A stretch of 40,033 bases of DNA from a virus, in the UHGV virus genome UHGV-0235137, one strand, 5' to 3'. Positions 13,795 to 24,339 of the stretch are shown piece by piece. Within the stretch, counting starts at the first letter, position 1. Every line of letters starts with the position of its first letter. A program made the translations under genes and the position numbers. The notes beneath the pieces were generated by a model. That model saw nothing but the letters and a program-made list of their open reading frames with translations, was not told the DNA's origin and made no database searches.

Positions 13795-15147
13795 ATGTGG
13801 AATCCAATTGTTAATGTAGATATTACATTGAACACCGCAGGAACTACAAGAGAAGGTTTTGGGCTACCACTATTTTTAGCTTCAACAGATAACTTTGAAG
13901 AAAGAGTCCGTGGTTACACTTCCTTAACTGAAGTTGCTGAAGATTTCGATGAGAATACTGCTGCATATAAGGCTGCTAAACAACTTTGGAGTCAAACTCC
14001 TAAAGTAACTCAGCTTTATATTGGCAGACGTGCTATGCAGTACACTGTATCAATTCCTGATGCCGTTACCGAAAGTACAGACTACTCAATTACTGTAGCT
14101 GCTGGCGGTGGAATTTCTCAAACATATCAGTATACAGCACTAGAGTCAGATACTGCTGAAAAAGTATTGCAACAGCTCAAAACACAGATTGAAGCTGACC
14201 CAACAATCAAAGATAAGGTTTCTGTGAACGTAACTGGTAGTGGTGCTTCTGCCACAATGATTATTACCAAAGCTGGTGATAATGACTTTGTGAAAGTAAC
14301 AACTACAGCACAGACTGTATATATCGCAAGTACAACTGCTGATACAGCGTCAACTGCTCTGGCAGCCATTGAAGCTTATTCTACCGACTGGTATTTCATT
14401 GCAGCAGAAGACAGAACTCAACAGTTTGTCTTAGCAATGGCTTCTGAGATTCAGGCTCGTAAGAAAATCTTCTTCACTGCTAACTCTGATGTATCAGCAC
14501 TACAAGGTACAGAATTAAACAGTGCAAACGATGTTCCAGCACAACTTGCTAAGAGTATGTATACTCGCACAGTTTGCTTGTGGCATCACACAGCAGCAGA
14601 AGACTATCCAGAGATGGCATACATTGCTTATGGTGCTCCATACGATGCAGGGTCAATTGCTTGGGGTAATGCTCAGTTGACTGGTGTAGCGGCTTCTCTA
14701 CAGCCAGCTAATAAGAGACCTCTGACAAGTATTCAGAAGTCAGCTTTAGATGCGCGTCACTGTAACTTTATCGACCTTGATGGTGGTGTTCCAGTGGTTC
14801 GTAGAGGGATTACTTCTGGTGGGGAATGGATTGATATCATCCGTGGTGTTGACTGGTTGGAATCAGACCTGAAAACTTCTCTGAGAGACTTGCTAATTAA
14901 CCAGAAGGGTGGTAAGATTACTTATGATGATACTGGTATTACCCGTATTCGTCAAGTCATTGAAACCTCTCTACAAAGAGCAGTCAACAGAAACTTCCTG
15001 TCATCTTACACAGTTAATGTTCCTAAAGCCTCTCAAGTTGCTTTGGCAGACAAGAAAGCTCGTATCCTGAAAGACGTTACCTTCGCAGGTATCTTGGCAG
15101 GGGCTATCTTGGATGTTGACTTGAAAGGTACAGTGGCTTACGAATAA
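13795..15147 (+). CDS. tail sheath protein (candidate)
   Basis: 450-aa ORF followed by a 148-aa tube-sized ORF, chaperone pair and tape measure. Confidence 0.55.
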   Translation: MWNPIVNVDITLNTAGTTREGFGLPLFLASTDNFEERVRGYTSLTEVAEDFDENTAAYKAAKQLWSQTPKVTQLYIGRRAMQYTVSIPDAVTESTDYSITVAAGGGISQTYQYTALESDTAEKVLQQLKTQIEADPTIKDKVSVNVTGSGASATMIITKAGDNDFVKVTTTAQTVYIASTTADTASTALAAIEAYSTDWYFIAAEDRTQQFVLAMASEIQARKKIFFTANSDVSALQGTELNSANDVPAQLAKSMYTRTVCLWHHTAAEDYPEMAYIAYGAPYDAGSIAWGNAQLTGVAASLQPANKRPLTSIQKSALDARHCNFIDLDGGVPVVRRGITSGGEWIDIIRGVDWLESDLKTSLRDLLINQKGGKITYDDTGITRIRQVIETSLQRAVNRNFLSSYTVNVPKASQVALADKKARILKDVTFAGILAGAILDVDLKGTVAYE

Positions 15148-15162
15148 TAGAGGTAAATTGGA

Positions 15163-15609
15163 ATGGCTATGTATCAGCAATATTCCCCTAAAGACGTTGT
15201 ATGTAGCTGGAATGGCATCGCTATTGAAGGCTTTGCTCCAGATTCATTTTTACGTCTACAGAGAACATCACCACTTATCACACCAGTTGTAGGTGCAGGT
15301 GGTCAGGTTGCTCTGACAAGAAATGCAGACAAGACAGGTACTATTGAGATTGAGCTAATGCAGACTTCTCTCTCTAATCAGATGCTTTCTGCAATTCAAG
15401 CTAAACAAGACAATATGGAACTTGAAGAAGATATCTCTTCTAACTTCGTAATCTACGACCCATCAGGCTCTGTTCTGGCAACTGGTATTAATGCTTGGTT
15501 GCAGGAACTACCACAGATTGAACTTGGTCGTGACCAGAACTCTAAAACTTGGATTTTTGGTTGTGAGAAGCTAGACTACACTTCAACAATTCCAGCGTCA
15601 AGTGTTTAA
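15163..15609 (+). CDS. tail tube protein (candidate)
   Basis: 148-aa ORF between sheath candidate and chaperone genes. Confidence 0.55.
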   Translation: MAMYQQYSPKDVVCSWNGIAIEGFAPDSFLRLQRTSPLITPVVGAGGQVALTRNADKTGTIEIELMQTSLSNQMLSAIQAKQDNMELEEDISSNFVIYDPSGSVLATGINAWLQELPQIELGRDQNSKTWIFGCEKLDYTSTIPASSV

Positions 15610-15682
15610 TAAATCCTATAAGGGGGAGACTTTAAAAGGTCTTCCCCTTTTTTGTTTCTTTTAAAAGTATTAAGGAATCACA

Positions 15683-16081
15683 ATGAAAACAGAATCTAGA
15701 GTAATTAATGGTAAGAAAGTAAATATCGTTCTGCTTGGGGCAAGAGATGGTATTAAGATGTCTATGAAGTTGGGTAAAATTGTTGTTCCAACATTTGCAC
15801 AGATGCTGTCAAGTCTGACTGATAAAGATAAGAAAGAAGCTCCAATGGTTCCATTTAAAGAACTTGTTGAAGCTTGTTTTGACAGAATTGAAGAAATTAA
15901 CCTTGAAGAAATGGCTACCCTGTTATTTCAAGGGGCAACTGTTGATGACTTTCCACTTAATATTGATACATACTTCCAAGCAAACTACGGTGAGTTTATT
16001 GATTACTTAGCATTTGCGCTGGAGGCAAACTTCGGAAGTTTTTTCGAAGCAAGCATTTTCAAAAGCCTAACTTCTCAGTAA
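15683..16081 (+). CDS. tail assembly chaperone (G-like)
   Basis: directly upstream of tape measure; slippery heptamer near its 3' end. Confidence 0.6.
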   Translation: MKTESRVINGKKVNIVLLGARDGIKMSMKLGKIVVPTFAQMLSSLTDKDKKEAPMVPFKELVEACFDRIEEINLEEMATLLFQGATVDDFPLNIDTYFQANYGEFIDYLAFALEANFGSFFEASIFKSLTSQ

Positions 16082-16083
16082 AC

Positions 16084-16322
16084 ATGGGTAATACTCTACA
16101 GACACCACTGACTGATGCTGCTGTAGAGGCAACCTATGAAGAAGCAGACGAGATGAAATTTGTGCTTGCTATTTATGGTATGGAAGGGTGTAAAGAAACA
16201 CTTGACCAACTCTTTGCTATGACATTCTCTGATTTATTATCATTGAGACAATTTCTTGAAATTCAGAGGTCGTATAAAGAGGAAATTGCTTACAACGAAC
16301 TTAGAAGAGCAGGAAAAATGTA

Positions 16323-16323
<1 letters not shown>
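16084..16323 (+). CDS. tail assembly chaperone extension (T-like), likely expressed as a -1 frameshift fusion
   Basis: its frame equals the -1 frame of the upstream ORF at T TTT TTC (16039-16045); no stop between. Confidence 0.55.

Positions 16324-24339
<8,016 letters not shown>

Follow-up and report, generated by a model that had tools for sequence, protein, structure and literature searches.

A probable programmed −1 frameshift in the tail chaperone gene of a FelixO1-like myovirus

We propose, with a probability of roughly 0.88, that the tail assembly chaperone gene of this FelixO1-like myovirus undergoes a programmed −1 ribosomal frameshift at the slippery heptamer T TTT TTC, close to the end of its first open reading frame (ORF1). 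Most ribosomes would translate positions 15683–16081 and release a 132-aa chaperone. In a minority, the tRNA-Phe on UUU in the P site and the tRNA-Phe on UUC in the A site would slip back by one base on U UUU UUC; both would re-pair on UUU, and the −1 frame would be read to position 16323 to yield a 213-aa protein. Such tandem tRNA-Phe slippage is the most likely mechanism. By analogy with the G/GT proteins of phage lambda and E/E+E′ of phage P2, the common N-terminal part would bind and coat the tape measure protein, and the rare C-terminal extension would bind and recruit the tube (major tail) protein, so that, in this proposal, the shift would keep both forms at a fixed ratio. The frameshift site itself is already known, having been annotated and published for FelixO1-like phages. 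The residual novelty is modest and consists of a conserved Shine–Dalgarno (SD)-like element at fixed spacing from the heptamer and, possibly, of a 3′ hairpin in certain distant lineages.

The chaperone locus and its slippery heptamer

The analyzed window is a 40,033-nt stretch of the virus genome UHGV-0235137. It belongs to Felixounavirus, a genus placed in Andersonviridae, subfamily Ounavirinae, and is 97.8% identical to Escherichia phage vB_EcoM-LTH02 over positions 13795–18551. Genes in this region follow the order sheath, tube, ORF1, ORF2 and tape measure, which places the chaperone pair between tube and tape measure:

13795–15147, + strand: tail sheath gene (Pfam DUF3383; phrog_205 ‘tail sheath’, E = 8e-124)
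15163–15609, + strand: tail tube gene (Pfam KPP10_Orf10, E = 3.6e-07; phrog_280; annotated as tail tube protein in Harbringer)
15683–16081, + strand: ORF1, short tail assembly chaperone (G or TAC-N analogue), the 0-frame product of 132 aa and 14.8 kDa, assigned by Pfam, PHROG and its SD sequence
16084–16323, + strand: mechanical ORF2, 79 aa, read here as the distal part of the −1 segment and given as a separate gene in many records
16323–18551, + strand: tape measure protein gene (Pfam TMP_3, 63.4 bits; phrog_4036, 1527 bits)

ORF1 matches Pfam PF21822 (Phage_TAC_15) with 71.5 bits against a cutoff of 22 (E = 1.2e-19), above the curated gathering threshold, in an alignment that spans residues 9–124 and profile positions 1–124 of 127. 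It also matches phrog_1613 (E = 8e-49) and phrog_3840, both described as ‘tail assembly chaperone’, and its ATG is preceded by a good SD sequence, AAGGA (ΔG −6.1). A PDB search with an ORF1 profile returned a non-significant full-length match to 5ir0_A, ‘Uncharacterized protein ORF19’ (E = 0.12, residues 8–124 versus 10–128), a solved structure that may represent this family of chaperones; coiled-coil matches to nsp8 in that search were rejected as spurious. Between the tube stop (15609) and the chaperone start (15683) lies a strong hairpin at 15620–15655 (13 bp, −19.7 kcal/mol, z = −2.6) with a T run after it. The arrangement resembles an intrinsic terminator and could lower chaperone and tape measure expression relative to sheath and tube; the record of Citrobacter phage Michonne carries an annotated terminator at the matching place.

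The elements of the proposed frameshift are the following:

16039–16045, + strand: slippery heptamer T TTT TTC, read as X XXY YYZ (this register holds at all 94 loci and in each of the 27 lineages)
16045–16323, + strand: −1 frame segment after the shift (T or TAC-C analogue), 92 codons and a stop, conserved as a protein between lineages
join(15683..16045, 16045..16323), + strand: long chaperone (GT or TAC-NC analogue), 213 aa, 24.3 kDa, annotated as a two-piece CDS in the phages Mushroom and Michonne

A preliminary description of this DNA had placed T TTT TTC in the X XXY YYZ register of the 15683–16081 frame, and the codon phase bears this out. Across the site, the 0 frame reads AGT TTT TTC GAA; since an ORF1 codon begins at 16040 (offset 357 = 3 × 119), the TTTTTTC at 16039–16045 is read as T TTT TTC. 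The distance of 36 nt from heptamer to stop given there holds if counted to the last base of the stop codon, whereas the TAA itself begins after 33 nt, or 11 sense codons. As also described, the −1 frame is open and is the frame of the 16084–16323 ORF: it runs without interruption from 16003 to a stop at 16321–16323, and the first 33 nt of the −1 segment are dual-coding with the end of ORF1. Computing a −1 shift at the heptamer reproduced the expected junction, ...EANFGSFF-RSKHFQKPNFSVNMGNT....

The long form thus defined comprises 121 N-terminal residues common with the short form and a new C-terminal segment of 92 residues. Its profile matches extend over both parts. The phrog_3840 alignment crosses the junction to fusion residue 151, with the fusion scoring above ORF1 alone, and phrog_4963 covers fusion residues 135–213. 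For the short form, the predicted peptide at this place is ANFGSFFE; the predicted junction peptide of the long form is ANFGSFFRSKHFQKPNFSVNMGNTLQTPLTDAAVE (or ANFGSFFR).

ORF1 has no in-register X XXY YYZ heptamer besides T TTT TTC. Throughout the plus-strand ORFs of at least 100 codons in the window, 35 in-register heptamers occur in 9355 codons, and a −1 ORF of more than 30 codons is reached from only 2 of these 35. The chance expectation is about 0.1 heptamer in the 26-codon zone in which a −1 shift would reach ORF2, so that a single sequence is only suggestive. With odds of about 10% for an in-register heptamer in this overlap, the run of T could in principle be a by-product of a Ser-Phe-Phe motif, with no recoding at all and the −1 ORF unexpressed. 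What places the site far beyond chance is the conservation of synonymous positions in all 27 diverged lineages, including genomes with a GC content of 0.62–0.65, and the constant presence of a −1 extension that is stop-free, protein-like and alignable. In view of these comparative data, set out below, we assign the by-product reading a negligible probability.

Conservation of the heptamer and the −1 frame

T TTT TTC or T TTT TTT is present in register in all 94 related loci, which fall into 27 clusters at 60% protein identity (termed lineages here) with locus GC contents of 0.35–0.65. The last heptamer base is C in 20 lineages and T in the other 7. Phages with the heptamer in register comprise VpaE1, radambza, BPS17W1, Mushroom, Michonne, phiEa21-4, Harbringer and Yersinia P778, together with Pectobacterium Wc4, Silverhawkium and the Vequintavirinae A5-4, CR8 and Av-05, which were reached by tblastn at 27–30% identity. 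Mooglevirus, Kolesnikvirus, Vequintavirinae and GC-rich metagenomic phages are all represented among the lineages with the site. In every relative examined, down to 23–30% protein identity, both the site and the open −1 frame are kept. For Erwinia phages, the sole surviving nucleotide match to a 641-nt query corresponds to window positions 16028–16068 (92.7%), with the site at its centre.

Part of this nucleotide conservation reflects protein constraint, since the Phe-Phe dipeptide is itself invariant. In addition, 80 loci were contributed by an IMG/VR scan, for which only synonymous positions are informative because the seed peptide pattern contained Phe-Phe (FF); relatives derived from tblastn are independent of that pattern. 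At the synonymous positions, all 27 lineages use TTT for the first Phe codon and have a T at the end of the Ser or Cys codon before it. Judged by background Phe and Ser/Cys codon usage of the same loci, this synonymous choice has a probability of ~0.14 per lineage and ~1e-23 jointly if the 27 lineages are independent, an independence that is approximate. The restriction of the last heptamer base to C or T agrees with the Escherichia coli A-site hierarchy, A_AAG >> U_UUC > U_UUU; IS elements employ U_UU.U_UU.C as one of their efficient heptamers (PMC4066793).

In each lineage, the −1 extension measures 69–124 codons, and the extensions can be aligned as a single protein family around a common core. 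In 20 of the 26 lineages in which the tape measure start was located, the extension stops at most 10 nt from that start, and in the other six it ends 33 to 290 nt upstream. In the window, the ORF2 TAA (16321–16323) and the tape measure ATG (16323) overlap by one base. The −1 residues encoded between the heptamer and the ORF2 ATG (R-S/G-K-H-F-Q-K-P) are conserved as well. The fusion had been called conserved before any relatives were consulted, a view now borne out by a heptamer and open −1 frame in 94 of 94 loci and in 27 of 27 lineages with less than 60% identity to each other.

Most GenBank records, RefSeq VpaE1 included, contain two separate CDSs at this locus, and the ORF2 ATG is situated only 2 nt after the ORF1 TAA. 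ORF2 (16084–16323) might accordingly be a separate gene, translated from its own ATG by termination–reinitiation into a free 79-aa protein, with the heptamer being incidental. The start signals argue against this. At ATG 16084, the anti-SD ΔG is +0.7 kcal/mol compared with −5.1 to −7.9 kcal/mol at 10 neighbouring starts, making it the only one of 11 tail-module starts in the window without SD pairing. An ATG at the ORF2 position is absent in Mooglevirus, Kolesnikvirus, Wc4 and Vequintavirinae relatives; Michonne, phiEa21-4, Wc4 and Vequintavirinae relatives lack a start here or nearby, often for 20–70 codons. More generally, the first possible start codon in the −1 frame of nearly every lineage occurs 20–70 codons in and lacks an SD sequence, and in none of the lineages does an SD-preceded start codon accompany the beginning of the extension. 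A free ORF2 would, moreover, not need the conserved R-S/G-K-H-F-Q-K-P residues upstream of its ATG. The ORF2 ATG without SD and the distant, SD-less starts in relatives imply that the −1 segment depends on the shift. We consider an independent ORF2 gene quite unlikely, with reinitiation as a minor additional route that could operate in Felixounavirus only.

Sequences flanking the heptamer

Upstream of the heptamer, ORF1 contains one further candidate element:

16021–16025, + strand: SD-like GGAGG (codons CTG GAG GCA), candidate 5′ stimulator, 13 nt 5′ of the heptamer

The duplex of GGAGG with the anti-SD sequence, at −9.3 kcal/mol, beats all 627 background coding positions of the locus, and the equivalent position lies below the 10th percentile in 20 of 27 lineages. 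The Glu codon that makes up the SD-like element is GAG in 20 of 24 lineages versus 9.4 expected (P about 5e-6). As a counterpoint, conserved Leu-Glu-Ala/Val residues partly force GGAGG. Its 13-nt spacing falls within the 9–14 nt of dnaX-type 5′ stimulators, which is the SD spacing reported for −1 frameshifting (PMC5009743). On these grounds, GGAGG probably helps the shift: it would pair with the anti-SD of the translating ribosome and thereby raise the shift frequency.

Downstream of the heptamer, no stem-loop or pseudoknot above shuffled controls was detected in the lineage of the window. Values of z = +0.46 for 16046–16125 and z = +1.34 for the segment from +3 to +62 led us to reject a downstream stimulatory RNA structure in this phage. 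An Rfam search of 15550–16450 at E ≤ 1 gave no match, with only three irrelevant sub-threshold ones. Given no 3′ stimulator, the shift efficiency may be low.

Across all 27 lineages, folding of the 60-nt segment 3′ of T TTT TTY gave a mean z of −1.04 (p = 0.0016), with z < −2 in 7 distant lineages (L068, L062, L078, L082, L080, L054 and L064). Several of the latter have in common GGTATTGG, which encodes Gly-Ile-Gly and is paired with a downstream CCAAT-like arm. This hairpin may represent a lineage-specific 3′ stimulator, absent from the window’s own lineage.

A weak, terminator-like 6-bp hairpin with two G-U pairs is located directly 5′ of the T run (16019–16035), overlapping GGAGG. It would pair the third bases of the GAG and Asn codons and was considered as the cause of the GAG bias; this was rejected for want of covariation, as GAA lineages keep AAC, and the hairpin is probably fortuitous. 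Together, hairpin and T run (16019–16045) resemble a pause or terminator signal, and the homopolymeric run extends to T7 or longer in 7 of 27 lineages. Both features would suit transcriptional slippage, in which RNA polymerase adds one U on the T6 run and standard translation then gives the same fusion. Bacterial transcriptional slippage, however, is described in a review on runs of 9 A or T, compared with 6 here. Polymerase slippage should also favour longer runs, whereas a C interrupts the run in 20 of 27 lineages, and C as last base is better for ribosomal A-site slippage. The SD-like element, at a spacing specific to ribosomal −1 shifts, and the missing covariation of the hairpin likewise speak against a transcriptional origin, which we regard as very unlikely.

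Returning to ribosomal frameshifting, we tentatively suggest, with confidence somewhat short of even, that the site forms part of a two-part cassette. It would consist of an SD-like GAGG or GGAGG at a fixed distance of 13 nt and U UUU UUY, maintained at synonymous sites across the Phage_TAC_15 family (Ounavirinae, Vequintavirinae and GC-rich uncultured phages), with a distant subset adding the GGTATTGG 3′ hairpin. If true, this would amount to a dnaX-like, SD-stimulated frameshift that tunes the chaperone ratio. We found no description of a cassette of SD and U UUU UUY in the accessible portions of the literature on this frameshift.

Known frameshift systems and annotation

The closest precedents are FelixO1-like phages with an annotated frameshift. 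Salmonella phage Mushroom (KP143762), 97.5% identical in this region, carries a CDS in two pieces that begins where ORF1 starts and finishes with ORF2. For Citrobacter phage Michonne (KT001916), the joined CDS bears the note ‘ribosomal slippage (47149)’, a coordinate equal to position 754 of its locus (L005) and thus inside the TTTTTTC at 751–757. The genome announcements of the Citrobacter phages Moogle and Michonne (2015) state the frameshift (PMC4319497, PMC4591319), and a 2025 article gives an invariant poly-T motif, GTTTTT, in 231 Andersonviridae TAC-N genes (PMC12846349). The gene and heptamer are the same as in the window and the joined span is homologous; nothing substantive differs. 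In their accessible parts, these records and articles present the motif as GTTTTT, not as an in-register heptamer, and leave the SD-like element unmentioned. The published statements are computational, and we found no experimental proof of the fusion protein in the literature for this phage family.

Phage lambda is a siphovirus with the heptamer G GGA AAG. Its G/GT system is reportedly the subject of work by Levin in 1993 and by Xu, Hendrix and Duda in 2004, 2013 and 2014. Lambda and the present locus have in common a −1 shift near the end of a chaperone ORF just before the tape measure gene, but the proteins belong to different families. A fixed ratio of short to long form and assembly roles of G and GT have been reported for lambda (PMC5009743). 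The features of the G/GT class (Xu, Hendrix & Duda 2004) are found here in the gene order, the −1 ORF overlap without initiation signals, the in-register heptamer and its conservation. The original proposal of a G/GT-type fusion upstream of the tape measure gene thereby gains support from the chaperone identity of ORF1, its tube and tape measure flanks, the conservation and the joined CDS in relatives.

In P2, the chaperone pair follows the tube gene. Like the present phage, P2 has a contractile tail, and its chaperone pair, E/E+E′, directly precedes the tape measure gene. Translation from one start there yields a shorter and a longer protein by way of a −1 shift at TTTTTTG, with no 3′ structure (PMC3091744). 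The last heptamer base is C here and G in P2, so that the A-site codon is Phe UUC here and Leu UUG in P2, and the proteins have 132 and 213 aa here versus 91 and 142 aa in P2. A Pfam scan of ORF1 at E ≤ 1 yielded no link to the P2 gpE family (only PF21822 and one spurious match); as judged from that scan, what the locus shares with P2 is mechanism and synteny rather than a protein family. E. coli dnaX resembles the locus in its internal SD-like element 5′ of an X XXY YYZ heptamer, with a spacing of 9–14 nt and 13 nt here. In dnaX, however, A AAA AAG is combined with a 3′ stem-loop for an efficiency of about 50%, whereas U UUU UUC in the window has no 3′ structure above chance.

The site matters mainly for annotation, the correct product being the 213-aa joined CDS, and opens no new biological question. 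In most deposited FelixO1-like genomes, RefSeq included, the −1 segment appears as a small gene of its own, carries no annotation or has a wrong label. Taken with the SD-like element, the invariant U UUU UUY supplies an easy rule by which the long chaperone can be annotated across hundreds of Andersonviridae, Vequintavirinae and related metagenomic phages. The locus further offers a compact natural cassette for the study of SD-stimulated −1 frameshifting without 3′ structure. Among individual records, those of phiEa21-4 and Wc4 have the −1 segment unannotated, that of Harbringer contains two short CDS calls where the −1 frame runs, and those of VpaE1_ev108 and SUT_S920 label the chaperone as ‘head closure protein’.

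A second shifty site in the window, A AAG GGG at 19333–19339, precedes the stop of the gene at 18551–19348 by 2 codons and would lead into the −1 gene at 19348–19689. It was rejected as a frameshift site, being not conserved in Michonne and P778 and occurring at a different offset in phiEa21-4. Located 8 nt before the ATG and with an anti-SD ΔG of −7.8, A AAG GGG is most likely the ribosome-binding site of gene 19348–19689. Lastly, an identity of 97.3% to this Felixounavirus region was seen for MG065664.1, a 70.7-kb record under the name Campylobacter phage A132 with Campylobacter jejuni given as host, which suggests a mislabelled host or a contaminant.
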